DNA of 64,000 nucleotides, from the NCBI GenBank assembly GCA_002269645.1, contig NIVC01003339.1, positions 1 through 64,000 on the forward strand, read 5' to 3'. Position 1 is the stretch's first letter. Every line of letters begins with the position of its first letter. The notes beneath the pieces were generated by a model. That model ran no database searches, was not told the DNA's origin, and saw nothing but the letters and a program-made list of their open reading frames with translations. The position numbers were made by a program, and so were the translations under genes. This document shows, piece after piece, positions 1-17,111 of this stretch. This DNA is from Macrostomum lignano. Lineage: Eukaryota.

Positions 1-440
1 TTGTAAAGATCTGGTCCGCCTTGTTGCTGTTGGCTGCTGCTGCTGCTGACCTCTAGGAGCATTGTCTGACTCAACTGTCATCTCAACATCGTCCATATCT
101 ATGACGGCTGAGTCGTGGTTCCAGGAGAAGCTTTCATAATTGCAGTATCGGCTCTGTTGATTTATTTGACTGCTGACTTTGTTGACTGTTTACCGATGGC
201 AAACAATGACTGGAATTTTATAAAGTATGATAAAGTTTCAGTAATGCATTTTATAGCACATACAAACGAGCCAATACTGTACGCAGGCACACACTCATGC
301 ACCGCTCACACAGGGTGCCACCGGGGGGGGGGCATGTCCCCCCAGTAAAATTTATGGGGGGACATGCTAGTTATTTGTCCTACCCTACCTTTGTTGACCT
401 GTTATGGAAATCAATAATTTTGCGTCAGGGCGATAAAACA

Positions 441-503
441 GAGTGCCTGCGGCGCTAAAATGAGTGCCTGCGGCGCTAAAATGAGTGCCTGTGGCGCCAA
501 AAT
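441..503. repeat. 21-bp tandem repeat x3 (gagtgcctgcggcgctaaaat)
   Basis: Three near-identical units read directly. Confidence 0.85.
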
Positions 504-657
504 GAGCGCTGACAACACCGATTCTCACAATAATGTACATGTAGGAATTTAGTCATGTACATGCAGAACTCTTGGCTTTGTCCCCCCCCCCACTATAAAA
601 TCCATAGCGGCGCCCCTGTCAGCGAACCTGCCTTTCTAATCGTTAGGCATGTTACGA

Positions 658-910
658 GGGCATGTACACTCTCTGTCTTGGGGGGGGGTTGGCCCTTATG
701 GGTGTGAATTGGAGATAACAGGGCATGTACACTCTCTGTCTTGGGGGGGGGGTTGGCCCTTATGGTGTGAATTGCAGATAACAGGGCATGTACACTCTCT
801 GTCTTGGGGGGGGTTGGCCCTTATGGGTGTGAATTGCAGATAACAGGGCATGCACACTCTGTCTTCGGGGGGGGGGAGAGTTGGCCCTCATGGGTGTGAA
901 TTGCAGATAA
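658..910. repeat. ~62-bp tandem repeat x4 with G-runs
   Basis: Unit gggcatgtacactctctgtcttg(n)ttggcccttatgggtgtgaattgcagataaca repeated four times. Confidence 0.9.
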
Positions 911-1447
911 AAACCCCCAATGGACAATTTCCGTGCGCCACAAGACTTAAATGAGTGTGACGGATGCATGGATCGAACAAAGGGTTGAGATGCGAGAGTC
1001 ACGACGTTGCTTTGCCCCATTATCTATGCTACTTCTAAAACGGTAACCCATGCTTTACAATAGTAAGCATAAAAATATCTTGGTATATATTAGTAGAAGA
1101 ATCAATAAATTTATTTTATTACGCAAATATTATAATAGAATTGCATAAATCAATCAATGAGTGAATTAATTACTCATTGAGCAAGAATAACATTATAGTA
1201 ATTGTTTGTCAATAACAAACCGTACACACTACACACATTGGAGTACAATTTAGATAATGCTAATTTGTATTGGAAAGACAAATTCTATAACTAACAATTC
1301 TGTTTAAGGTTGGAACATAAATGATAAAATAACTATCAAATTGGGAATATTTAGTCAAGTAAGATTGCAAACATATTGGTATCATATATACAAGACAACC
1401 ATTGAAGCACCTTCTCTCAACAAGAACAACAAACACCTTTCCCAGCA

Positions 1448-2089
1448 TCATCCAGTTCTCATAGTCTGCTCCATCATAGCTAGCAATCGTCCAATTTCGT
1501 GTTTCAATAATCGCAATCTCTGCTCGCTAGCTTCAAACTCAATCTCTTTAGTCTGCTCTGTGCCGTCACCTTCAACACCGAGCTTAAATCGAACTTGAGC
1601 AGCGGTTTTCTGCCCAGACTTTGGCGGCATCATTAAACGCAAGCTCCAGGAGCACGAGGCCAAACGAGACAGTCTGAGCTCTCTAGCATTGGCGTACTCA
1701 GTCAGAGCAGCACCGGAGTCTGAGTACACTCTAACAATCTGTCCCGCATGCTCCTTCGGCAAGCCCAGCTGTTGCAGCTCCTCTCCCAGAGTCTCTGGAC
1801 TCGCTGAGTACTTATTAGCCGAAGTAAACAGCTGAGTCAACGCCGAGATCAATGCCTGATTGTCGCGTTCGTTAAATTTCGCGTCCGACGTGTGCTTAGC
1901 AACCGTTGCTAGGAGGACGGCGTTGTTGTCAAGGCTACTACTATCGTTGCTAGCGGCAGAAGCGGCTAAAGACTTTACCAAAGCTGAGCAGACCAGACGC
2001 AACTTGACAACTGACAATTTTGACATGGCAAACACTTCAGCTAGCAGCCAGTCCGGACAGTCGAGGTCGCCGAAAATTTTGAACTTCAT
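1448..2089 (-). CDS. COMMD4: COMM domain-containing protein 4, intronless, 213 aa
   Basis: N-terminus MKFKIFGDLDCPDWLLAE and ELQQLGLPKEHA match the COMMD4 signature; C-terminal COMM-like region (CSWSLRLM). Confidence 0.93.
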   Translation of the reverse strand: MKFKIFGDLDCPDWLLAEVFAMSKLSVVKLRLVCSALVKSLAASAASNDSSSLDNNAVLLATVAKHTSDAKFNERDNQALISALTQLFTSANKYSASPETLGEELQQLGLPKEHAGQIVRVYSDSGAALTEYANARELRLSRLASCSWSLRLMMPPKSGQKTAAQVRFKLGVEGDGTEQTKEIEFEASEQRLRLLKHEIGRLLAMMEQTMRTG

Positions 2090-2669
2090 CGCTCTTCGAA
2101 AATAGCAACTCGGCAGGATTACATGAAAAATATATGAAGCGTTAATAACTTATATTTTAGCATACATGCTTCAAGTTTAGGCTAAAACAAAGATACAGAT
2201 CTATACTTAAGTAATCATCAAAATGTAGCGTTTAGGAGAATTATAATACTATTAATTCCACACACAAAGCTATCTACAGTATCATTTTAAGTAATATAAA
2301 TTCCACTATTAAGTATTTAGTAAACAACATAAAACAACGATTGTATGAAACAGTCAATCTTAGCAGTGCACATAAATGCATTTCATTGAAATCATTGTTA
2401 TATATATTATTTTGAAACAAAACATTACATTTGCGGTTGCAGATACGTTAATAATAATTATTACTAGTCATATTAACACACTTCGACTTGATTGGGAAGA
2501 TAAAACAGATACTAACTAAGAGTAATAACAAATTTATCAATAGTGTTTTTATTGTCGATTAAAATAAAATCATGATAACTAATTTAAATTTTAGCGTAGC
2601 TATTTAAACAGATTTTCAATAATAGCTCTTGAATAATTTAGGCGTCAATTTATTGGCACATATCGGCTG

Positions 2670-3092
2670 TCAGCCCCAGGCCTGCGTCTTGCAATAGTGC
2701 AGAGTGAGTTTCCCATCGGCGCCAAAACAGTCGTAGAGGCCGCCAAAATCGCGATCTGGCGCCGGCACGAATGCCTGATTGACGTAGAGAAACAGCGACT
2801 CGTCCGGCTGGCATTTCAGCGCCTTCTTGACGAACTCGCTGACCCAGCCGACTCGTTGGGAACGGGCGACGACCCATTTTTTCTTGGTTAGAATCGGCGC
2901 ATTACCAGTTGGTCGAAGTAAAATCACGATTTTGTCTGTTGAAGCTTTGGCAGCTGGAGTTGCCGAGCCTTCATCTGATTTAGACTCAACTGCAGAGTCT
3001 TTGCTAGAGGCTTCATCCTGCTGTTGAGTCTGCTGCTCAGCCGCCTGCGACTGCGGCTCAGATTCCGCAGAGTCTTCCTGCTCGGACGACAT
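2670..3092 (-). CDS. ATG12: Ubiquitin-like protein ATG12, intronless; probable start MSSEQ at 3092
   Basis: KIVILLRPTGNAPILTKKKW...LFLYVNQAFVPAPD...LYDCFGADGKLTLHYCKTQAWG is the ATG12 fold with its C-terminal AWG; acidic disordered N-terminus. Confidence 0.95.
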   Translation of the reverse strand: MSSEQEDSAESEPQSQAAEQQTQQQDEASSKDSAVESKSDEGSATPAAKASTDKIVILLRPTGNAPILTKKKWVVARSQRVGWVSEFVKKALKCQPDESLFLYVNQAFVPAPDRDFGGLYDCFGADGKLTLHYCKTQAWG

Positions 3093-3304
3093 GCAAACGA
3101 TACAAAAAAGACAAAAAATGAGAGTTATGAAGAGAATCAAATAGGATCTGCCAGTATAAAATGGGTACTAAACATTATCCTACTGTTACCGATAGACCGA
3201 TTGAAAGCTGGTCCTTGGGCACTTTGGTGAAAGTAGTCACAACACATTGGCCGGTGAGATGCCCTGTCCTACCATCATTTTTGCACCTCAGATAATAATA
3301 ATTA

Positions 3305-3590
3305 TAATAATTGATTACACCTGCCCAATTAGGCCAGATGTGCAACCGACAGCTCAGCCGCAGCTATTGCGTACGGCTGTTCAGTCCAAGGACTGCGGGG
3401 TCGCCACACACACCCTCAATTACCCCAGCTAATGCTGGCACCCATTTTTACAACTGGGTGAACTGAAGCAATGCAGAGTTAAGTGTCTTACTCAAAGACA
3501 CAAATTGTTGCGAGTGGGATCGGGAATCGAACCTCCGACCTTCAAGTCGTGAGTCCGCGCTCTGACCAACTAGGCTGCACAACCCAGCAA
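3305..3590 (-). mobile_element. tRNA-derived SINE family A (CORE-like domain)
   Basis: tRNA-like head with A box and B box (GGTTCGATTCC), MIR-CORE-like central block, AT-rich tail; further copies at 25.6, 40.7 and 53.6 kb. Confidence 0.88.
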
Positions 3591-5694
3591 CTTGTTTGTA
3601 CCTCAGAGAAGTTGCTGGGCAATTGACAGTTGATATGAACAGACAGCAGTCATAACAATGAGCGACGCACTATAATAATCTACAGACAACGCTATAAAAT
3701 TTGTTAAATTACCTTAGAATTGTCAAAACAAACTAAATTTAGTCACTAAATACTACGCTAAGCCTAAAAACAATCTAAAAATTAGACAAATAAACAAGCC
3801 GAACAATCACATTTTGTTGATAAAAAAACACCCAAGCAACGAACGAGCAGACACGTTTATTATAGTTTCTGCTTTCAATGATCACAGACCGTCGACGAAA
3901 CATTCAAGCCAATGTTGAATGCTACATTCGGCTGGTGAAATAAACTTAGCCAAATATACTTGGGCGACAGATGCACTACTAGGCTAAGCGAATAAGTAGA
4001 AAAGGAACAAAAAACGAGAGAAAAAACTTCACATTTTCGAACTTTTTTCACACATGAACTTTTCCCAAATTGTTAACTGGAAAAAATCTTATAAAGATTT
4101 TGTTTTTTTTTCGGGCTGCAGAAGCGAGACACGACATAATGATACGAGCCTAAGCTTTGGTTATGCTGTAACGTGTGACACCAAAAGCACTGTAAACTAT
4201 ACTAATATAACACTAAGATGCATGAAATACATACATATTTTTGATAATTTAAATATACGAAAAAATGTACAACAATAAAAGCATTAAATGTAGTGGATTA
4301 CGTAATTATAAAAAAACAGTAAATATTACCAGTAGAATGAAGCTGTTGTTCGTTGTTAGACACAATTAAATATGTAGAAGCCTAAAAATTGCAGAAATAT
4401 TATTATACGTCAATGGTGAGTTGCATAAGGATCAGTAACCATCTAGACAAAAGCTGCTCAAAAACTGATTTACAATGAAAATGAAAATGAATATAAATGA
4501 TAACACAAATGAGGAAAAGAGAAAACAGATAAAAAATTATTGTGGAATTTTATTTAATGTTTGTGACGCTGTTGTTACGATCAAAAGTGATTCACGAATA
4601 AAAACAAATACATATATAAATATTAACAAAAATAAAGCAAGCTTGTAATTTTAATTTGTTTTAGATACTACGCCCGAATCGACTATTTAATGTTTGATTA
4701 TTAAATTGATATCTAATATTGATAAATAACTATAAAACTAAAATATTCGAGATTCGAGCACTGTATCATTAAATAAATAATACAATTATAACAAAACAAG
4801 CATAACGCTGTCAAAATAAACTAAATCAGCTGTTTAACATATTTTTATTTTCATGTAGTTAAAGCGATTTGGTTGTAAGATAGTTAACAATAAACGCATA
4901 TATATATATATGTGATATACATACACGTACAATATTCGTATGCCGTAGTGAAAAAAGAATATACAAAACTTTACCAATTCAAAGCAAATGATTATACAGT
5001 GCTTAAATATTGCCAGAAGAGAATAACGTTCAGGAAAAAGCATATGAAAAGGTTTACCATAAAATATTTAACTGAGTCTTTGCAACAAACACTACGCTGA
5101 AAAAAGACTAAAAATAAAACAAAGCTGTCTGATGTTTTCTGAACTACCAGATGCACAAATGAATATCTAGCTGCTTTAATACAACTTTTTTCTACATACA
5201 AAAAACAGTAATTTAAAAAAAATCACATTTGTTGCTTCGTTGTATGCGGCTAATGTTGCAAATTTGTCATAAATTATCATAAATATATGTCAAAAATTCA
5301 ATTTATATACCACATGATTACAAGTGAAGACAAGCCTGCATGCAAAGTGTAACGTAAAGCATTAGGTGATTTCGAATAAACAAAAACAGGTATTAAATGT
5401 CGATGGTATTTTTTTCTCATTAAAAATTGTAAAGCTGATTGAAACAAAAATTAATTTAATAACAAGCGTTGCTTTCGTATAATCAAAAAAATTGCAGTGA
5501 AAACAATTGAAGAGATTATAGTTTATTACACTCGTATTGAAGCTTATATATCAATATTATTTATTGTGATGAAAACAAATAAAATTGTAGTTTCCTCATT
5601 AGTTTAATTAAACAATTGTTGCACTTTAAATTTTGCATATTTGTGCCGCACAATCACTGCTCATCATTGTGCCCTTGATCTTTGATTTCCCAGC

Positions 5695-6033
5695 TCAAAT
5701 AGTGCCAGCCGTAGATCGAATCATGGGTTTGATATCCGGCAGGCTCGAATCGTCCCACTCCAGCTGCGGCTTCAGCACAACCGGCTGCTGCACCTGCTGC
5801 TGACCATAGCGCACCGCCTCGGCTCCGGTGACCATCTGAACCACCACAGACTCATCGTCCAGCTCATCCTCAGAGCTGGCAATCTGAGCCGAGCGCTGCA
5901 TTAGCAAGCCCGAAGCGGTCATCCCGTCAATATCGTCTTCCATCTCGTCCGAGCAGCTGGAGCCATTGTCCAAATTCAGTTCGTCTTCAACGTAATCATC
6001 TTCTTGATTGTCTTCGCTGCCAGAGTCTGACAT
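5695..6033 (-). CDS. Acidic low-complexity ORF (112 aa); possible first exon or truncated transposase N-terminus
   Basis: GC-rich coding-like island in AT-rich surroundings with a D/E/S-rich N-terminus; no recognised domain. Confidence 0.35.
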   Translation of the reverse strand: MSDSGSEDNQEDDYVEDELNLDNGSSCSDEMEDDIDGMTASGLLMQRSAQIASSEDELDDESVVVQMVTGAEAVRYGQQQVQQPVVLKPQLEWDDSSLPDIKPMIRSTAGTI

Positions 6034-6189
6034 GTTCTCCTGATTGTGCCGGTTATTGGTTAATTGATTAGAGAATACATATGGTCGGTTATTGTCAGGC
6101 CAGCGCGGAATGTTTTTTTAGCACCACAGGGGAGATTTTAGCGCCACAAGAATACATAGTTCGCGCCACAAGGAAGATTCAGTAGCGAC

Positions 6190-7135
6190 ACAACAGAGGT
6201 CTTGGCGCCATAATGGAGGCCTTGGCGCCATAGTGGAGGGGAGGTCTTGGCGCCATAGGGAGGTCTTGGCGCCATAGGGAGGGGAGGTCTTGGCGCCATA
6301 GGGGAGGGCAAGTCTTGGCGCGGTAGTGGAGGGGAGGTCTTGGCGCCATAGGGAGGGGAGGTCTTGGCGCCATAGGGAGGGGAGGTCTTGGCGCCATAAT
6401 GGAGGCCTTGGCGCCATAGTGGAGGGGAGGTCTTGGCGCCATAGGGAGGTCTTGGCGCCATAGGGAGGGGAGGTCTTGGCGCCATAGGGGAGGGGAGGTC
6501 TTGGCGCCATAGGGAGGGGAGGTCTTGGCGCCATAGGGAGGGGAGGTCTTGGCGCCATAGGGGAGGGGAGGTCTTGGCGCCATAGGGGAGGGGAGGTCTT
6601 GGCGCCATAGGGGAGGGGAGGTCTTGGCGCCATAGGGAGGGAAGGTCTTGGCGCCATAGGGAGGGGAGGTCTTGGCGCCATAGGGAGGGGAGGTCTTGGC
6701 GCCATAGGGGAGGGGAGGTCTTGGCGCCATAGGGAGGGAAGGTCTTGGTGCCATAGGGGAGGGGAGGTCTTGGCGCCATAGGGGAGGGGAGGTCTTGGCG
6801 CCATAGGGAGGGGAGGTCTTGGCGCCATAGGGGAGGGGAGGTCTTGGCGCCATAGGGGAGGGGAGGTCTTGGCGCCATAGGGAAGGGGAGGTCTTGGCGC
6901 CATAGGGGAGGGGAGGTCTTGGCGCCATAGGGGAGGGGAGGTCTTGGCGCCATAGGGAGGGAAGGTCTTGGCGCCATAGGGAGGGGAGGTCTTGGCGCCA
7001 TAGGGGAGGGGAGGTCTTGGCGCCATAGGGGAGGGGAGGTCTTGGCGCCATAGGGGAGGGGAGGTCTTGGCGCCATAGGGGAGGGGAGGTCTTGGCGTCA
7101 TATCGATATGGAAGGTCTTGGCGCCATACGGAATG
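6190..7135. repeat. 24/25-bp minisatellite (ggaggtcttggcgccatagggagg), ~38 units
   Basis: Direct reading; the long ORFs here are repeat artefacts. Confidence 0.97.
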
Positions 7136-7221
7136 TCAAGCAGTGACCTTAAAATTCGTGAGCGGCTGCCCCCTCTGCGACACCCCTCCCTGTTCCGCGG
7201 TGCCTGGTTGCAAACAGTGTT

Positions 7222-8996
7222 AGTAGTATGGGACAACAGAACTCCGCCGCAGGAATTTCCGTGGAAAAGCCATGGGCCCTAGTGAGTGAACATACGGCCC
7301 TATGTAAATCCATTGAGCGACTCTGCCGCAGTGCAGGCCATGGAAATTCCGTGAGACCTCCTAGTGAGAGTACATTGGTGAAAGTATTTGCGAATGGGGT
7401 GGGGCTCCGCGGGAATTCCGTTAACCGCAATGAATGAGTATTGGCAAATGCGTGTTCTGCTACGACGGACACAGGCGGTTCGGTTCATAAAACCAGGCAA
7501 TGCTTTGCTTCTGAATGACATTTAATATTCCATCGGGTATCGTAAAAGGAGGAGGGGCGTGTCTTTATTTCAATGATTACAATAAAATCAATGTGAAATT
7601 CATGTCTAAAATTTGAGCTACCAATTGTTGAAAAATCACTTGATTTTGGAATTTAAGGATTTTGGAATTTTGGAATTAATTGAAACTTTTGCCTATTAAT
7701 TAGGCAAAAGTTTCAATAACAAGATGCTGCTTTAATAAGATTATAATAGCCAAGCATCTCCCTCTTTCTTGGGGTGGTGGGTGTGTTGCTAAATGGAATT
7801 GGACGCTCAATAGTTATCAGTTTTATTGCTCCCCAGTCTGGTCGGGAGTTCCAGTTGGCGGCAAGTGCAAAGGAACTTTTGTACATGTATGCTTTCAATA
7901 GAGGCTCTGTACCTGGGTTTTCTAATAAAATTATTTTTAAAAACCTGGTTTCTGAGACGGCTGGGTTACTGACTGTAAACATAGCTAAGCTGTAAACATA
8001 GCGGCTATGTTTTTATTAACACAGATTCGAATAAGCGAGGTATATAAGACACCGTATACTTGAATACGGGACATAAGTTTCTACTTCTAATTTGAGTTTA
8101 GAATTTCAATTTGATTTTTCTATTCAAACATTTAAAAATTTGGAATGAATAAATCGCGCTGCCCTTCATATGTGTACGAGGTGTGCATTTCCTGCAACTC
8201 ATGTGAGCTCGGTGGCTTAAAACGTCACAAAATGAAAAGCAGCTGCAATGTCAGTCGCTGGATGCTTTGCCACGAGTGCCAGACGCGTGAGCTCTTTAAT
8301 GTGCGCCAGCAAGTTCGAGCTCACAAAAACCACATTATTATTAACTGGAGCTTACCTGGAGATTTAAAACGAGCCCGCTTTGCTGCCTTGGAGGCTGCCC
8401 AGCGTCAAGAGCAGCTCAACATTATCGAGCGCAGTCGAGCACCGGTCAGCGCACTCAGCCAGACAATTCAGGGCGTCTTTCAGCAGCCTGATGAAGATTT
8501 TCAGCACGCTACCGATGCAAACTTTGATCTGCTTGCTGCTGCACTTGCCGCTGTAGAGCAGCAATCAGATTTTTTTGGTTCAACCGCTGCGCCAGCTGCT
8601 GATGCCGGCCTCCCAGCTGACGGTGCCGGCCTTCCAACTACTGATGGCGGCCTCCCAGCTGACGGTGCCGGCCTTCCAACTACTGATGCCGGCCTCCCAG
8701 CTGACGGTGCCGGCCTTCCAACTACTGATGCCGGCCTCCCCGCTGACGGTGCCGGCCTTCCAACTACTGATGCCGGCCTCCCAGCTGACAGTGCCGGCCT
8801 TCCAACTGCTGATGCCGGCCTCCCAGCTGACGATTCCACTGGTTTTGCAGCTCCTTCGGAGTTGGATACTGCCTTCTTCGAGGATGTCGATTTGGAGCCT
8901 GTTGAGCTGGCAAATAAAGAAGCTGAGCAGCAACAGACGCCACCCCACAGGCCTGCTCCAGTCGCAGGAAAAAATATGGAGCAAGCCAGAATGATG
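7222..8996 (+). repeat. Left inverted arm (1775 bp)
   Basis: Reverse complement of 14924-16922; 7 mismatches in the first ~300 bp by manual alignment. Confidence 0.95.
8041..8047 (+). promoter_or_regulatory. TATA box for Polinton ORF1
   Basis: TATATAA ~100 bp upstream of ATG 8145; mirrored in the right arm. Confidence 0.45.
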
Positions 8997-9197
8997 GCAG
9001 AAGCAAGCCTATCCGATCTCCTGCGAGAATTCGAACCTCCTACTCCACCGGCTGCACCAGAAATCCAAACCGGTGACATCCCAGTCGTAGAAGCCATGCC
9101 ACCGATGCCACCGTCAGTCTGCATTCAGCTGGTACTACCGAGCAGAGTCGAGGGCGAGTATTTTATTGACCTTGGGGAGGAACTCGCATTCGCTTAA
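8145..9197 (+). CDS. Polinton ORF1: Cys/His-rich N-terminus, 5 x 14-aa repeat (LPADGAGLPTTDAG), acidic/Pro-rich tail, 350 aa
   Basis: Intact ORF with upstream TATA; duplicated in the right arm. Confidence 0.75.
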   Translation: MNKSRCPSYVYEVCISCNSCELGGLKRHKMKSSCNVSRWMLCHECQTRELFNVRQQVRAHKNHIIINWSLPGDLKRARFAALEAAQRQEQLNIIERSRAPVSALSQTIQGVFQQPDEDFQHATDANFDLLAAALAAVEQQSDFFGSTAAPAADAGLPADGAGLPTTDGGLPADGAGLPTTDAGLPADGAGLPTTDAGLPADGAGLPTTDAGLPADSAGLPTADAGLPADDSTGFAAPSELDTAFFEDVDLEPVELANKEAEQQQTPPHRPAPVAGKNMEQARMMAEASLSDLLREFEPPTPPAAPEIQTGDIPVVEAMPPMPPSVCIQLVLPSRVEGEYFIDLGEELAFA

Positions 9198-9897
9198 GTA
9201 GCTCTTAAAGTGTCCCAGTTCAAAGTATTTAAAAGTAGGGGAAACGAGATTTGTAGATTTTTAGGGGAAAACCAATGCATTCTACCCTGCATAAATATTA
9301 ACTAATTACGTTGCACCTCATCGTGCTCATACAGGTTTCTCATAAACAAAGTGAAAAAGAAAATAATTTAGGCTTACTGTTCAAACTTATTCTTATAATA
9401 AAGCTTTAATAAGCAGCTTTAATTAGTAGGGTGACTAACGAGCATGATTTTTTGCATTGCGAAATGCTTTACCAGAAATATAATGGATTGATGGTTGCTT
9501 TTAATGAAAGCTTTTGCACTTTCTTGGACTTTGTTGAATTCATTACTTGTTTTTTTTTCAATCATGTGAATATCTTCGAAGAAGTTATAGGTTCACTCGC
9601 TTATAGAATTACCGTTAGGTTCACAGCATCTACTCAACTCTATGAGTATAATATGGGATTGATGATCTATGATACCCAATGTTTAGAATGACATGAATTT
9701 GGTTTGTCAAGCATGACTTTGGTTAGATTCAATTTCTGCTCCATAGAGCTCTGAATGCTGGAAATTTATCACTCCACTACATCTCTGACAGAATCGCTCT
9801 TGGGTTAAATTTATCAAACAACACTTTTACACTGGAATTTCAGCAGCATTGAGTTCTTCACTAAATGTCGCTCTATTTCTAATATTAATTCTCTGCA

Positions 9898-11090
9898 ATG
9901 GCCACCCCATCGAGTCGAGAGGACGAGCCGGTGGACCCAGCTGTCAGCCACGAATTTGGACCGAGTGGTAAGTTTTTTCATTCCATTGCTGGTTTTATGA
10001 ACTCATGCATTTCTGTTTGTTGCATTCCTGTCTCTTAGCAACGGAATTATTTATATTTTTCTCGCCTACACAACAATTCCCAAATGGTTCCCAACAGGAT
10101 TAAGCCGGAGAACTCACAATAATGAGACATTTTTATTCCTCATTAGATGAATTGACAAAAATGCGAAAGCAGAACTCCATCTATTTCTTCAATAATAACT
10201 CTTCAAATTCTTTTTTTACACTTATACGTAGCTCGTATTGATTAATAAAAAAATATTAAATCTAGATATAAGGTAGTAGGATAAATAGTATACTCGTAAG
10301 TGTAAAAAAGGGCAATAAAATATTCGACTTCCATAACTCCCAGAGACATTTCTCATCATTTCCACTTTCCATAAATATTTTTAATACTATCTTCCCTTCT
10401 TCAATTGTAGGACCTTCATTCACCCTGGCGTTAAAAACCAGCGCTCACGAAGATGTTCTTCAAGTTCATCGATTTACACCTGGAGCTGCCACTGAAACAT
10501 TCGAGTTTCTCGATTTCTGCAAAATCGCAGTGCAGCAGTGTCTTGAAATTCGCTTCGACTCTTCGGATAATTGCTCTGTTAAAGCTCAGATCAAACTGAA
10601 TTTGCGCATGGTCAGAGTGCAGGCGTCAGAAGCTGTCAAGGGGAGGATAAATGGATGAGCACACAACTCGGATTGGTGGTAGATATACAGGAGTTTGATG
10701 ATTGGTGGAGACAGCAGTTTACAGAGCTGGAGCGCAAAGTCGATGTCTACAACACCAACGGTAGTGGCTGGATAATTGAAAAAATCAATTTTTTTGAACT
10801 TTACTCAGCTCTCGTCGAACGAGTTTCCTACTACACGGGGCATGCTGCGGAATTTATTCTACCGACTCCACTTCTTCGGAAGAAGGCGGTTATTTGTCCT
10901 CCAAGCAATGGTGTAAATTGCTTTCTTTACGCATGCCTTGCTTTTCTGCACAAGGAAGACAACAAAATAAAGAAATCAGCGCAACGCGAGTCTTCCTACA
11001 CTGACTGGCTGGATGAACTTAACATGAGTGGAATTGACTTGCCAATCAATGTCACCGACCTTTCCACTGCTGAGAGACTGAACCCGAGAC
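9898..11090 (+). pseudogene. pPolB N-terminal part: exon 9898-9967, GT-AG intron 9968-10410, exon 10411-11090; 1-bp frameshift in GGGG 10640-10643
   Basis: Phase-1 splice gives MATPSSREDE...GPSG/PSFTLALKTSAHEDVLQVHRF...KAQIKLNLRMVR...YNTNGSGWIIEKI...VICPPSNGVNCFLYACLAFLH, resembling the N-terminal extension of invertebrate Polinton PolB. Confidence 0.78.
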
Positions 11091-11385
11091 AAAGTACAGG
11101 TAAAATTAGAAAAAAATAAAACTCTCACATGCCATCACCGCAAACACCACCACCACCACTAACGAAGCATTGGTTTCATTATCATCATCGCGCAATTGTA
11201 AGTAAATATTGTGAAGCAAAAAATTGTTGCTAGCCTCAGCAGATGATCAAAGTTTTTATTGCATTTGGAAAAAATCCTATTTAGATTAGCGGTTAACCTT
11301 TATTCAATGTCAAAGAAAGAAACTTTGAAATCGCAAAGAAATTATTGTTTTTGTTTAGCAAGCTTGTTGTACTCATTATTCAATT

Positions 11386-11877
11386 TCAAAGTAGTCGGCG
11401 CCGTTTTGATGATTTCTGCTGCTGTTGCTGCTGCTGTTGTTGTTGTTGTTGTTGTTGTTGCTGCTGTTGCTGTTGTTGTTGTTGTTGTTGTTGTTTTTTT
11501 TTTTATTAGAAGCAGGGGGGCTGTGTGCACCCTGGCGCACTTTAGGCGACATAGGCACACAACCGGCGAGAGGCATTACTGCCCATTCCGCCGACTCCCC
11601 TGAGCAGGCATACAAGCGCGCGGATACGTTACGCAGACACACACTCACACAGGAGTGTACAGCGGCCCTAACTTTATCAATTGTTAGGCATGTACATTTC
11701 ACTGCGCCTTGGGGGGTTGGCTCTCAAGGCCGTTAATTGCACAGGCGAGCCAAGCCGAAATTCCAATTCAGCCCCAAATTAATGTGGCTGCACTTGGAAT
11801 CGAGCCTGGGTCGCGGCACACCAGAGCAGCTGCGCTACCGCTGGACTACGGCCCCCCTGTGTTGTTGTTGTTGTTGT

Positions 11878-11916
<39 letters not shown>

Positions 11917-14900
11917 AGCAGCCGAATGTGACCAAATGGGAGACTATAGTTAGGGCTCAGCCAAGCGCGCTTGTCTTCCCAAATGCTTAAGGCACACTTC
12001 CGCTGCTGCAAAGTGTACAGTCGGTGATGGATGCTGGCAATACGATGAACAACGACAGAATGGCTGCAGAGCTCATTGAACACCCTTAGGTAGTCACTGT
12101 GAGCCAGCTCTTTCTTAACAATGCATCCTTGAACTCCTTTGGCCTTCTTCTTTTCCGCGGCTTGGCTACTCGCCTTGAATGAGTAAAGCTTCGGCCTTAG
12201 GAGCAGCCACTCCTCAAAGCGAGCACCGGCTGCTTCATCCTTAATGCAGCCAAGTCGCGCTTTTAAATCATTCGAGAATAGCGCGTGCTCTTGAGGATAG
12301 TTTGAAGTGTCGAGCAGCTGCTTCGACTTCAACAGCGGTAGAACTTTAGACTGAACGCTCATGTTGCTGATTGAGAGAAAGAAAGAATCGGTATCACCAC
12401 AGCATAGCTTGATGACACCTCCATCGTTCTCTATCCAGGGCTTCAGTTTGTCGTAAAACAGCTCGTACATAATCATTTTCGAAAAGTCTAGGACGCATTG
12501 CCCGATAAAAATAGGCCGATCGAGCTTTAATTTTGTCTTTTGCAGTTCCAAAACGCTTAGTGAATCAGTAATTATGATAAAATTGGTAATTGTCGGCTTG
12601 GCAAGCAGTACCTTTACCTTTTCCACGTTGGTGCAGACTCGAATATCACGCCGCTTTCGCACATTCTCCATAGTTTTGCCGAATAGCGCGTTATTCTTTA
12701 ACTTGTAGAAATCCTTTTCGAAGTTGGTTTTCGCTGCAGCCCGCTTCTGGCTATTTTTCTCGACGTAGGCAGCAAAGAGAGGTTCTTGGTGAAACTCAAT
12801 CATGCGATTGATGCGTCTAACCCGCATTCCATGGTTCAGGTAGAACGCCAAAATAGAGGAATGAACCACATAGGAAGGCTTATCGTGACAAGTGAGCATC
12901 AGCTTCTCTGTCGGATGATAGGTGGAGTTCTCCGTACCGACCTTTTCCCACAGCTGCTGCATGTATTCAGGAAATTCCCTGAAATTCGGGGCAGCCTTTT
13001 CCGGTGCAAATGGTAGGTCTTCGGTGGTTTCGTGAATCTCTGGGGATACTCAAGGTCAACATCAAAGAGGTAGGCGAGTGGATCGGTTAGCTTGAGTCCT
13101 CGAATGCGATCTTCAGTCCACAAAAGCAGCTCATCATCGTCCAGCCAACGGAATCCTCCGACTGGTAAGTTCATAGTGAGCGCCTGTCCATACAGGTTGT
13201 TTGCATCCACAGCAAGAAGCTCGGTGAGGCCAGCATGAATAGTAGGAGTGCCACCATCAACATCCTCATTGCTGTCAACACCAGTGCTGGCGCCCGCTGC
13301 TGAGGTAGCCTGCACTTTGTGGATGTTAACAAACGACATGCCGCCGCGAATGCCGCGCTCAAACAGCGAATACATCTGCGCATCTGTTAGCAGTTCAATC
13401 CCTGACTTGATGGATTTCAATGCCGAAGCGAATGATAGACCTGGTGTCGAAATAAAATGGACTGGATCAAGGCCATCCTCTTGCATGCTGATCTTGCGAA
13501 AATTTTCAAAAATATCAGCCAACTGCCTGATGTCGAGCTCGAGGTAGCACAGCATGTACTCTTTTAGATTTGAAACCTGAAATTCTCGCCAGGCGCGTTG
13601 AGCATGCTCATAGTCAGAGTTGGTGCAGTGGCTCTTAGTCAGAGCATTGTAGAAGCTCTCTTGGCTGGGAAGCACGGCATCCTTCAGCACGTCTGAATTT
13701 TTAAGATAGTCATACGGGAAAACTCCCTTGCTGAAAAGCACTTCGGATGATAGCAGTGGGAATCTGCTGCTGCGTAGGCGACTAGTGATACGACATTCAG
13801 CCTCTGGTAAATTTTTGATGAGCTGTGAGAGGCTGGCATTAAGAAATTGATTCGAATCAATGAACTGAATAGTAAAATTTAAAGGCTTGATCTTGCCCTC
13901 ACTCTCATACTCGCCGATTTTAAATTCGATTTTCATCGACAGAAACTGCTCTGGATTCAGAGGGATGACGGAGATTTTCCAACCCTCCATCAGACCCAAA
14001 GCGGATGACATCATGAGATGGAGATCGTACCCCTTGAAATTGTGGAACACGACGGGAAGGAAAGACCTCTTTAGTCTGGCCTTCATATTACAATCAGCAC
14101 ACGCAGCTCCCCGAAATTCTCCGCTGAGGTGGTCGTGATCCCAATGTTTATTGGACCCTTCCGTGAATTCGCTTCCACAATAGCAGCAAGCTGTGGCTTC
14201 TCTGAACTGTCGCCCTGCCATCTCTGTTCTTATCGCTGCTTGTCGACTGAACTCCGTGTTCCAGCCGTAAACTTCACGAGCGAGCTTCTCCAGCGATTGC
14301 AGGAAATCGGAAATGCACTTATTAGGATCGTCGCTGACAAAAGTGCTCACTTTATCATCCGCTCCTCTGGGCGCTAGACCAGTCATCCCTTCTCTGTGCA
14401 GCACGATGTAGCCAGCAGCAACAGCAATGTGCTCAGTTAACTTCTTCGTTGCTATACCAGCAATCGAATCTTCTTGGCATGGAGCATTCAATGCTTCGAA
14501 GTCGGCGTAAACAACAAATGGCGGACTAATTGTTTTTTCCCATGATGAGAATCGGAGAATATTATTCCTTTCATCCGGCAACTCTTCCTTGACGTTGATC
14601 ACTCCAGGTTGACAAGGAGCTCGGCTGTGTTCTTCAAAGGCTGCATCACTATGAAAGGGCAGCAAGCAGCGCTCACACCACTTCCGCCGATGCAGAGCTG
14701 CCTTGCTATTAAGAAGCCTGTTGATGCTTGAAACAGCACACCAATGACCCGAGGCCTCGTCTTCTGATGGTGGAATAAATAAGAGTAGAACAACTTCTCG
14801 ATCTTTCATTGTAGCTGCAGTAGGCAAGCGGAGGACTTGAGCGCTCTCTTTCTCCCAGATGAAAACCGTGAAGCAAAGTCTCGGGTTCAGTCTCTCAACA

Positions 14901-14923
14901 ATGGAAAGGTCAGTGGGTCATTG
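11386..14923 (-). pseudogene. Protein-primed family B DNA polymerase, remainder; frameshift in GGGG 13042-13045; SINE in polyQ tail
   Basis: Zn finger (CERC...H), ExoI VYADFE, endonuclease-VII-like domain (DHDHLSGEFRGAACADCN), ExoII FHNFKGYD, ExoIII YLELDI, and Pol motifs VDANNLYG, KLKNNALFGK, GDTDS. Native end QQQKSSKRRRLL-stop at 11386. Confidence 0.93.
11494..11857 (-). mobile_element. tRNA-derived SINE family B inserted in the PolB polyQ tract
   Basis: A box TAGTCCAGCGG, B box GGCTCGATTCC, poly(A) tail, (CAA)n on both sides; homologous to 29851-30214 and 31178-31449. Confidence 0.9.
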
Positions 14924-15985
14924 CATCATTCTGGCTTGCTCCATACTTTTTCCTGCGACTGGAACAGGCCTGTAGGGTGGCATCTGTTGCCGCCCAGCTT
15001 CTCCACTTGCCAGCTCAACAGGCTCCAAATCGACATCCTCGAAGAAGGCAGCATCCAACTCCGAAGGAGCCGCAAAACCAGTGGAACCGTCAGCTGGGAG
15101 GCCGGCATCAGCAGTTGGAAGGCCGGCACCGTCAGCTGGGAGGCCAGCATCAGTAGTTGGAAGGCCGGCACCGTCAGCTGGGAGGCCGGCATCAGCAGTT
15201 GGAAGGCCGGCACCGTCAGCTGGGAGGCCAGCATCAGTAGTTGGAAGGCCGGCACCGACAGCTGGGAGGCCAGCATCAGTAGTTGGAAGGCCGGCACCGT
15301 CAGCTGGGAGGCCGGCATCAGTAGTTGGAAGGCCGGCACCGTCAGCTGGGAGGCCGGCATCAGTAGTTGGAAGGCCGGCACCGTCAGCTGGGAGGCCGGC
15401 ATCAGTAGTTGGAAGGCCGGCACCGTCAGCTGGGAGGCCGGCATCAGTAGTTGGAAGGCCGGCACCGTCAGCTGGGAGGCCGGCATCAGTAGTTGGAAGG
15501 CCGGCACCGTCAGCTGGGAGGCCGGCATCAGCAGCTGGCGCAGCGGTTGAACCAAAAAAATCTGATTGCTGCTCCACAGCGGCAAGTGCAGCGGCAAGCA
15601 GATCAAAGTTTGCATCGGTAGCGTGCTGAAAATCTTCATCAGGCTGCTGAAAGACGCCCTGAATTGTCTGGCTGAGTGCGCTGACCGGTGCTCGACTGCG
15701 CTCGATAATGTTGAGCTGCTCTTGACGCTGGGCAGCCTCCAAGGCAGCAAAGCGGGCTCGTTTTAAATCTCCAGGTGAGCTCCAGTTAATAATAATGTGG
15801 TTTTTGTGAGCTCGAACTTGCTGGCGCACATTAAAGAGCTCACGCGTCTGGCACTCGTGGCAAAGCATCCAGCGACTGACATTGCAGCTGCTTTTCATTT
15901 TGTGACGTTTTAAGCCACCGAGCTCACATGAGTTGCATGAAATGCATACCTCGTACACATATGAAGGGCAGCGCGATTTATTCAT
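14918..15985 (-). CDS. Second, C-terminally truncated copy of Polinton ORF1 with 10 x 14-aa repeat
   Basis: Near-identical to 8145-9197 up to MEQARMM, then stops at the junction with PolB sequence. Confidence 0.7.
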   Translation of the reverse strand: MNKSRCPSYVYEVCISCNSCELGGLKRHKMKSSCNVSRWMLCHECQTRELFNVRQQVRAHKNHIIINWSSPGDLKRARFAALEAAQRQEQLNIIERSRAPVSALSQTIQGVFQQPDEDFQHATDANFDLLAAALAAVEQQSDFFGSTAAPAADAGLPADGAGLPTTDAGLPADGAGLPTTDAGLPADGAGLPTTDAGLPADGAGLPTTDAGLPADGAGLPTTDAGLPADGAGLPTTDAGLPAVGAGLPTTDAGLPADGAGLPTADAGLPADGAGLPTTDAGLPADGAGLPTADAGLPADGSTGFAAPSELDAAFFEDVDLEPVELASGEAGRQQMPPYRPVPVAGKSMEQARMMQ

Positions 15986-16922
15986 TCCAAATTTTTTAAT
16001 GTTTGAATAGAAAAATCAAATTGAAGTTAAATTCAAATTAGAAGTAGAAACTTATGTCCCGTATTCAAGTATACGGTGTCTTATATACCTCGCTTATTCG
16101 AATCTGTGTTAATAAAAACATAGCCGCTATGTTTACAGCTTAGCTATGTTTACAGCTTAGCTATGTTTACAGTCAGTAACCCAGCCGTCTCAGAAACCGG
16201 TTTTTTAAAATAATTTTATTAGAAAACCCAGATACAGAGCCTCTATTGAAAGCATACATGTACAAAAGTTCCTTTGCACTTGCCGCCAACTGGAACTCCC
16301 GACCAGACTGGGGAGCAATAAAACTGATAATTATTGAGCGTCCAATTCCATTTAGCAACACACCCACCACCCCAAGAAAGGGGGAGATGCTTGGCTATTA
16401 TAATCTTATTAAAGCAGCATCTTGTTATTGAAACTTTTGCCTAATTAATAGGCAAAAGTTTCAATTAATTCCAAAATTCCAAAATCCTTAAATTCCAAAA
16501 TCAAGTGATTTTTCAACAGTTGGTAGCTCAAATTTTAGACATGAATTGCAAATTGATTTTATTGTAATCATTGAAATAAAGACACGCCCCTCCTCCTTTT
16601 ACGATACCCGATGGAATATTAAATGTCATTCAGAAGCAAAGCATTGCCTGGTTTTATTAACCGAACCGCCTGTGTCCGTCGTAGCAGAACACGCATTTGC
16701 CAATACTCATTCATTGCGGTTAACGGAATTCCCGCGGAGCCCCACCCCAATCGCAAATACTTGCACCAATGTACTCTCACTAGGAGGTCTCACGGAATTT
16801 CCATGGCCTGCCCTGCGGCAGAGTCGCTCAATGGATTTACATAGGCCCGTATGTTCACTCACTAGGGCCCATGGCTTTTCCACGGAAATTCCTGCGGCAG
16901 AGTTCTGTTATCCCATACTACT
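14924..16922 (-). repeat. Right inverted arm (1999 bp)
   Basis: Inverted copy of 7222-8996; longer mainly by five extra 42-bp units and a short duplication near 16140. Confidence 0.95.
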
Positions 16923-17111
16923 AGTGTTAAAGAATTTTAATAAGAGCTAATTCTGATTATCATTCACACGAAATTCACACGAAATTTTTTGTGAACTAAT
17001 TTTTTTGTTATAAGCAATTTAAGTTTTTTGTCATTATTACAGTTACAAGTATTATTGGTGAGTTTGTTAGACGAAAAATCGAGCTTTATAGTAAATTTTT
17101 TCAATTGATTT

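Follow-up and report, generated by a model that had tools for sequence, protein, structure and literature searches.

The element at positions 7222–16922 of contig NIVC01003339.1 from Macrostomum lignano (the window is the 64,000-nucleotide stretch of this contig that was analysed) is a rearranged 9.7 kb Polinton with the left end of its own family present at both termini, and its layout can be likened to that of killer-type hairpin loci. It is considered to be a single non-autonomous derivative that formed among replicating siblings, was inserted by the integrase of a sibling, and now makes a fold-back RNA subject to A-to-I editing; this combined reading is given an even chance of being correct.

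Self-BLAST of the window aligns 7221–8832 with 16923–15298 in inverted orientation at 97.2% identity, and 8592–8996 with 15328–14924 at 94.6%; the right terminus has left-type letters at the positions that tell the two ends' terminal inverted repeats (TIRs) apart (about 113–116 and 130). Together with alignment to a natural parent, these results bear out the initial annotation, which had described a Polinton made of two left ends. The parent, complete with its true right end, is the copy at G000:C2692:21550-37683 (16,134 bp), and "parent" positions below refer to it; its TIRs are 132 bp, which excludes the case that the family naturally carries TIRs of about 1.8 kb containing open reading frame 1 (ORF1). 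In parent positions the element reads 1–4177 forward, 7593 to 4140 reversed, an 8-nt filler, and 2083 to 1 reversed; the junctions proposed earlier at 11090/11091 and 14923/14924 hold in this alignment. Nothing right of parent 7593 is present, and the integrase and capsid-sized genes are gone.

The left arm (7222–11090, plus strand; parent 1–4177) contains the left terminus, ORF1 (8145–9197, plus strand), an intergenic part with the AATAAA that lies downstream of ORF1, and the N-terminal piece of the protein-primed PolB (10272–11090, plus strand). ORF1 includes six units of a 42-bp minisatellite and has no match in the Pfam profile search. The middle segment is inverted parent 4140–7591 (11091–14915, minus strand) with the remaining PolB (Pfam DNA_pol_B_2 and Endonuclease_7) and its 3′ region, and the right arm (14924–16922, minus strand) is a second left end, parent 1–2083, of young-sibling haplotype, in which ORF1 is truncated and its downstream AATAAA lost. 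The two PolB pieces lie on opposite strands and jointly span the parent PolB with a 38-bp overlap (11053–11090, plus strand, here segment x, repeated inverted at 14878–14915); the earlier statement that the halves hold one full PolB is right as to the span covered, but with the pieces on opposite strands no intact PolB is encoded. The element is accordingly non-autonomous, as had been proposed, with integrase, capsid and intact PolB all absent. Two single-base frame breaks in the PolB pieces are supported by none of the four sequencing runs compared and may be assembly slips; none of the conclusions rests on them. A fusion of ORF1 to PolB through junction 2 was considered and is ruled out by a stop codon within the filler, directly after truncated ORF1.

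The parent displays the features of Polinton/Maverick elements: a protein-primed PolB (PF03175, E 1e-13, on a 1,312-codon frame), a retroviral-like integrase (PF00665, rve, E 1.8e-12, plus Chromo), and TIRs with a 6-bp target site duplication (TSD). It also has an adenovirus-like protease (PF00770, E 4e-05), a putative ATPase with a weak P-loop match alone (E 0.0099), and two capsid-sized ORFs that are assigned by size alone and have no Pfam match. The assembly searched comprises 764 Mb, in which the window is contig C3339; a search with the element's left 1.3 kb gave about a dozen close left ends elsewhere among the best 40 of 135 candidates. Many siblings are 99.7–99.97% identical to the parent copy over long stretches, which indicates a young family, and all four siblings examined with both ends have 6-bp TSDs, each a different 6-mer.

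A 6-bp TSD (7216–7221 and 16923–16928, both plus strand) encloses the whole element. Searching with the right flank returned seven matches, namely the window, three long homologues, and three weak ones on one other contig; all three long homologues (C3343, C34 and C3074) are empty sites that have one copy of the 6-mer and flanks alike over kilobases. These rule out a chance TSD, so that the duplication noted in the initial annotation is genuine, and they supply the empty-site allele sought there. The host flank also has a scar 38 bp right of the element (16961–16972, plus strand), where 12 nt from adjoining sequence replace 32 nt present in all three empty sites. Integration of a pre-formed rearranged genome is plausible.

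The arms differ at 37 of 1,556 non-minisatellite bases (2.4%, in agreement with the roughly 2% first noted): 13 are sibling letters, 11 others are private to the left arm, two are private to the right arm, and 11 belong to the A>G cluster described below. The earlier attribution of this divergence to sibling copies is upheld as far as two sibling templates are concerned, but not for the 11 cluster positions. Within the first 1,372 bp, 4–5 substitutions separate the right arm from four siblings and 9 separate it from two others; for the left arm the distance is 19–57 to the 11 siblings compared and 22 to the right arm. Between parent 1330 and 1908 the left arm passes from an older type of haplotype to a young one, its outer 1.35 kb or so being diverged and its sequence from about parent 1908 on resembling young siblings. 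As the arms are of different haplotypes, the element drew on two templates or more, which excludes literal self-copying. Left and right TIRs show no diagnostic difference over their outer 112 bp; these stretches are interchangeable, and their letters are therefore of no use for dating the right end.

Junction 1 (11089–11090) joins parent 4177 forward to 7593 reversed through a 2-bp microhomology, and junction 2 (14916–14923) is an 8-nt filler that repeats the following 8 nt with one mismatch and looks templated; neither agrees with the template switching at inverted repeats that had been proposed. Within the assembly both junctions occur once, spanned by one of 27 and one of 29 matches respectively, each time the window itself, and no other locus has the same chimera with a different TSD. 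There is thus no sign of spread as a defective-interfering parasite, and the description of the element as a parasite finds nothing that shows repeated mobilisation. Fillers of a similar sort are present in two siblings, C910 and C862, and in the host-flank scar 38 bp beyond the right end; microhomology with templated filler is the pattern of polymerase-theta end joining. The two PolB breakpoints are only 38 bp apart, which would be improbable had they arisen independently; such closeness would be expected had the onset of self-complementarity in the copied-back strand set off the second event. A single staggered-cut fill-in was rejected by reasoning, since the two overlaps need opposite polarities.

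A further rearranged copy, C862 (G000:C862:167626-188547), consists of parent 1–5301, then 1–195, then a full copy, with one 6-bp TSD around all; its segments each restart exactly at the left terminus and are separated by short fillers, one with an extra terminal triplet. It may record run-off and re-priming that took place on a linear genome in the free state. Joins of this kind, exact to the terminus, are easier to explain if the genomes were free and linear, and so favour the view that, in this family, molecules integrated after they had been rearranged.

Private substitutions were scored against the siblings (up to 13 per column, at sites with at least four), with the minisatellite and the microsatellite/SINE (short interspersed nuclear element) stretch excluded. 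There are 26, of which half (13) are A>G when read on the minus strand of the window, a cluster that the initial annotation had not noted, nor the likely hairpin RNA. The right arm has eight of them (14946–15087), the inner end of the long stem in the left arm three (8938, 8946 and 8956), and segment x two (11067 and 11070). All 13 fall within 444 bp of self-complementary stems and none in the roughly 8.1 kb outside (Fisher p=1.6e-17, for a zone picked after the data were seen); the 12 private changes outside the stems include no minus-strand A>G, and one stem change (8916) is of another kind. The affected stem parts are still fully paired, with G-U at each change. No sibling compared has a comparable skew, and the A>G patch occurs nowhere else in the assembly, the best other match being 95%. 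The cluster thus has the marks of ADAR hyper-editing, namely A>G changes of one strand confined to a duplex; one physical strand is hit in both arms, as is expected for ADAR acting on a fold-back transcript, while a symmetric sequencing artefact would affect each arm on the same strand. The AATAAA downstream of ORF1 (parent 2484) is lost from the right arm, and by this loss the anatomy would supply a read-through fold-back transcript. RNA-level editing by ADAR is considered a likely source of the A>G letters, which probably come from RNA rather than being fixed in DNA. A diverged sibling was also considered as the source of the G letters and rejected: C251, 85% identical, has sibling letters over the stretch seen, and seven of the eight right-arm changes are nonsynonymous in ORF1.

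Contigs from four of 24 listed runs (X1, X2, X3 and X14) were compared over 8840–15090. X1 and X2 match the window at 9267, 9795, 9907, 9917, 12401, 12783, 14591 and 14807; X3 has other letters at all eight positions and X14 at seven, with no depth at 14591. The window letter at 12401 is found in 0 of 12 siblings and that at 12783 in 0 of 13, and at these positions X1 and X2 have it while X3 and X14 have the sibling letters; at 13439 the window letter is in X1 alone. The shared letters imply that X1 and X2 are both dominated by this locus's haplotype, as expected if it were the family's transcribed copy. In X1 the start of one contig coincides with 11089, the point at which the path over the junction would fuse with that of the parent; one X2 contig stops at 11090, and another runs from 11061 to 11406 across junction 1, which is suggestive. 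Two letters of this last contig differ; elimination places them probably at 11067 and 11070, in unedited form, in which case those sites would not be fixed. At 15039 one X1 contig shows an extra T>C (depth 4.33 of 18.7), and X1 contigs are interrupted alongside T's of the plus strand at 8992 and 11061. In X3 and X14, 15039 is without depth and both junctions are free of breaks; these two runs are uninformative, since the insertion may be missing from them or may have been dropped.

The likely route of formation is hypothesized to be a template switch, or a joining of ends, between siblings in replication. Synthesis from the left end would have halted at parent 4177 and resumed backwards at 7593 via the 2-bp microhomology, a copy-back-type switch; the new strand would then have stalled or broken in the stem 38 bp after re-entering self-complementary sequence, and polymerase-theta-like joining with the 8-nt filler would have attached it to the left end of another sibling, before or after integration. 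The TSD is real, and the integrase of a sibling would have performed the insertion in trans. As the right arm retains the region upstream of ORF1 and lacks the poly(A) signal downstream of it, a minus-strand transcript could continue across junction 2, then the PolB piece and junction 1, and on into left-arm antisense sequence; it would fold into a long stem plus a 38-bp stem, and ADAR would edit both arms of that strand. Some of the edited letters would now be part of the assembly, probably brought in through RNA and not fixed in DNA. The anatomy is of the Mu-killer hairpin type, and the element is a possible natural silencer of its intact relatives. A bolder version, in which a copy-back polintovirus genome integrated in trans became a "Polinton killer" that is the family's main transcribed locus, yields double-stranded RNA (dsRNA) for ADAR and Dicer, and silences siblings in carriers, is regarded as improbable, if well above negligible; if true, aberrant viral replication would create host immunity against the same virus family.

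Several observations weigh against the edited fold-back RNA derivative. The run data are contigs and carry neither strand nor level, and the types of X1 ("DNA?") and X2 ("RNA?"), which come from different studies, are both guessed; none of the runs listed is on record as RNA, which counts neither way. A contig was counted as bridging a junction if its shorter side had at least 31 letters; that of the X2 contig at junction 1 has 30 and fell short of this, and junction 2 is bridged by none of the records listed. The extra variant at 15039 may be an error, and all four runs have sibling letters at 8938, 8946 and 8956. The 5′ neighbours of the A>G sites show a weak ADAR preference (A/U at 7/13 versus 35/105 in the background; G at 3/13 versus 34/105). 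The A>G changes end about 165 bp from junction 2 though the stem could reach about 2 kb, a short extent that must further be explained by supposing that marks were left solely by reads with an anchor in features specific to the locus. Edited letters would also have had to enter the assembly, for which polishing with RNA reads is one general route. The non-diagnostic outer 112 bp of the TIRs mean that repair in place fits too.

Under such repair a normal copy with its TSD would have come first, after which the PolB segment was inverted, the right 8.5 kb lost, and a sibling left end copied in by TIR-primed gap repair; abortive gap repair of this kind is known from derivatives of P, Ac and MuDR. 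Scars with templated fillers, at junction 2 and 38 bp beyond the right end, show that the locus has undergone host end-joining, the inverted overlap of 38 bp is what a staggered break could leave, and the interchangeable outer TIRs would have permitted the priming. However, the nearest template, the element's own left arm, went unused, given the 22 substitutions that separate the arms, and C862, with its terminus-exact left-end joins in one TSD, is easier to explain on free linear genomes. Rearrangement in place is considered unlikely, if a serious contender, and could be combined with the hairpin-RNA step. Should the structure have formed as favoured here, the A>G letters may still be fixed in DNA, through error-prone gap filling near the joins or repair templated on edited RNA: 10 of the 13 changes lie next to a junction within the arm that bears them, the letters stand in a DNA assembly, and X1, guessed to be DNA, appears to have the right-arm letters. 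This is thought quite improbable, as the three changes at 8938–8956 adjoin no junction in their own arm and just the stem base, one strand accounts for all 13 while fill-in needs mixed polarities, and the X2 junction-1 contig seems to be without two of the changes.

A propagating defective-interfering replicon is yet more doubtful. Here the two left origins would allow excision and amplification by a helper, and X1 and X2 would be DNA samples in which the replicon outnumbers its parents; both ends are indeed intact termini, and X1, guessed to be DNA, is dominated by this locus's letters. The assembly has one copy only, variation at stem adenosines points to RNA, and X2 has junction 1 with no cover of junction 2, where a DNA copy would be expected to give some, a weak argument since contigs drop rare paths. 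A second Polinton family of about 15.8 kb (C671, C1113 and 26 other contigs), which is about 76% identical near the left end, likewise has no two-left-end form among at least 28 left-end matches on 28 contigs (best 40 of 45 candidates). Least probable, and very unlikely, is a misassembly or a chimeric fold-back long read: long inverted repeats and about 15 near-identical siblings are hard to assemble and neither junction is bridged by a counted record, but the exact TSD against three empty sites, the different haplotypes of the arms, the filler at junction 2, and the contig breaks or overlaps exactly at junction 1 in two studies are not what such an error would give.

The non-autonomous, fold-back derivative favoured here can be compared with several known systems. 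Mu killer, a derivative of MuDR in maize, has both TIRs from one end; a fold-back or antisense RNA has been proposed for it, although a long-hairpin model is questioned in the same paper, and silencing by small interfering RNAs (siRNAs) has been shown genetically for this cut-and-paste plant transposon (PMC3440606). The window element resembles it in that both ends come from one side and the adjacent gene is inverted and duplicated; in contrast, it is protein-primed, virus-like and from an animal, and has a spacer of about 5.9 kb, two sibling haplotypes and an A-to-I-like signature. In composite Ac/Ds insertions of the "Ac killer" type, inverted duplications give rise to dsRNA, partly from the element's own promoter; they are made by alternative transposition of transposase-bound ends, and siRNAs and repression have been shown (bioRxiv 10.1101/2020.01.07.897926). 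The window element shares with them an inverted duplication of an element by aberrant transposition or replication.

Copy-back or snap-back genomes are similar in having one end twice, complementary arms, a single-stranded middle, both origins, and helper dependence (PMC13506859). The element has one end twice in inverted orientation with an internal deletion; its arms were not copied from one another, given 13 sibling-shared differences and 11 more private to the left arm, and with a single copy in the assembly it shows no sign of the repeated helper-dependent propagation of defective-interfering genomes. It also differs in its two templates, its second deletion junction, the absence of an inverted repeat at the switch, and its integrated state (PMC13506859). 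With regard to Polintons/Mavericks, the parent corresponds in its protein-primed PolB, rve integrase with chromodomain, protease, putative ATPase, capsid-sized ORFs, TIRs and 6-bp TSDs, while the window copy differs from an ordinary Polinton in having two left ends and nothing right of PolB (PMC6431247). Polinton-driven inversions are described at eri-6/7 of C. elegans; unlike in the window element, the rearranged DNA there is a host gene between Polinton copies or TIRs (PMC11414722). In the literature covered on Polinton rearrangement, defective genomes and hairpin RNA, which included few subscription papers, neither a two-left-end Polinton nor an edited hairpin from one is described.

Rearranged copies in a clean TSD, such as the window element and C862, may preserve traces of protein-primed intermediates in the free state and of siblings that recombined while active together; to our knowledge, Polinton replication has been inferred and never observed. 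In adenovirus, inverted-repeat deletion vectors (Steinwaerder, 1999) are said to be of similar shape. If the hairpin is real, the locus would offer a segregating natural test, given that empty sites exist, of the first animal recognition of a young Polinton family, and would extend to such a family a Mu-killer-like trigger until now shown for plant cut-and-paste transposons. As a caution, clustered one-strand A>G letters in an assembled repeat can be an editing imprint that inflates the apparent divergence of the arms.

Further features were noted in the element and its relatives. A SINE-like insertion of 355 bp (11505–11859, minus strand) lies in the PolB 3′ microsatellite; it is high-copy, has very high contig depth, and is absent in the seven siblings compared there. 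Inside ORF1 of the left arm, an AATAAA at 8913–8918 results from a private change and could shorten plus-strand transcription. Isolated A>G letters occur in the ORF1 minisatellites of the siblings C2941, C2930 and C910, where unit turnover or spill-over of edited reads is possible. C910 also has a 230-bp deletion near its left end with a 6-nt filler from nearby sequence (G000:C910:58150-58156). The parent contains a TBP-like ORF with two repeats (G000:C2692:29406-29972, minus strand; PF00352, E 1.3e-22) and a PC4-like protein (E 8e-05), which may be unusual cargo for a Polinton (of the papers listed that mention both Polintons and a TATA-binding protein, none plainly deals with such a gene), and a second copy of its right 6.6 kb with the same outer flank lies at G000:C2692:40262-46889, as either a tandem or an assembly duplication. 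In the second Polinton family several left-end stretches are 100% identical, so that it too is young, and the two copies retrieved have ordinary TIRs of 160–169 bp. The insertion is near genes and between tandem-repeat arrays, at a locus that occurs four times in the assembly; two host ORFs in the window, 1448–2149 and 2670–3167 (minus strand), resemble COMMD-type and ATG12-type genes.

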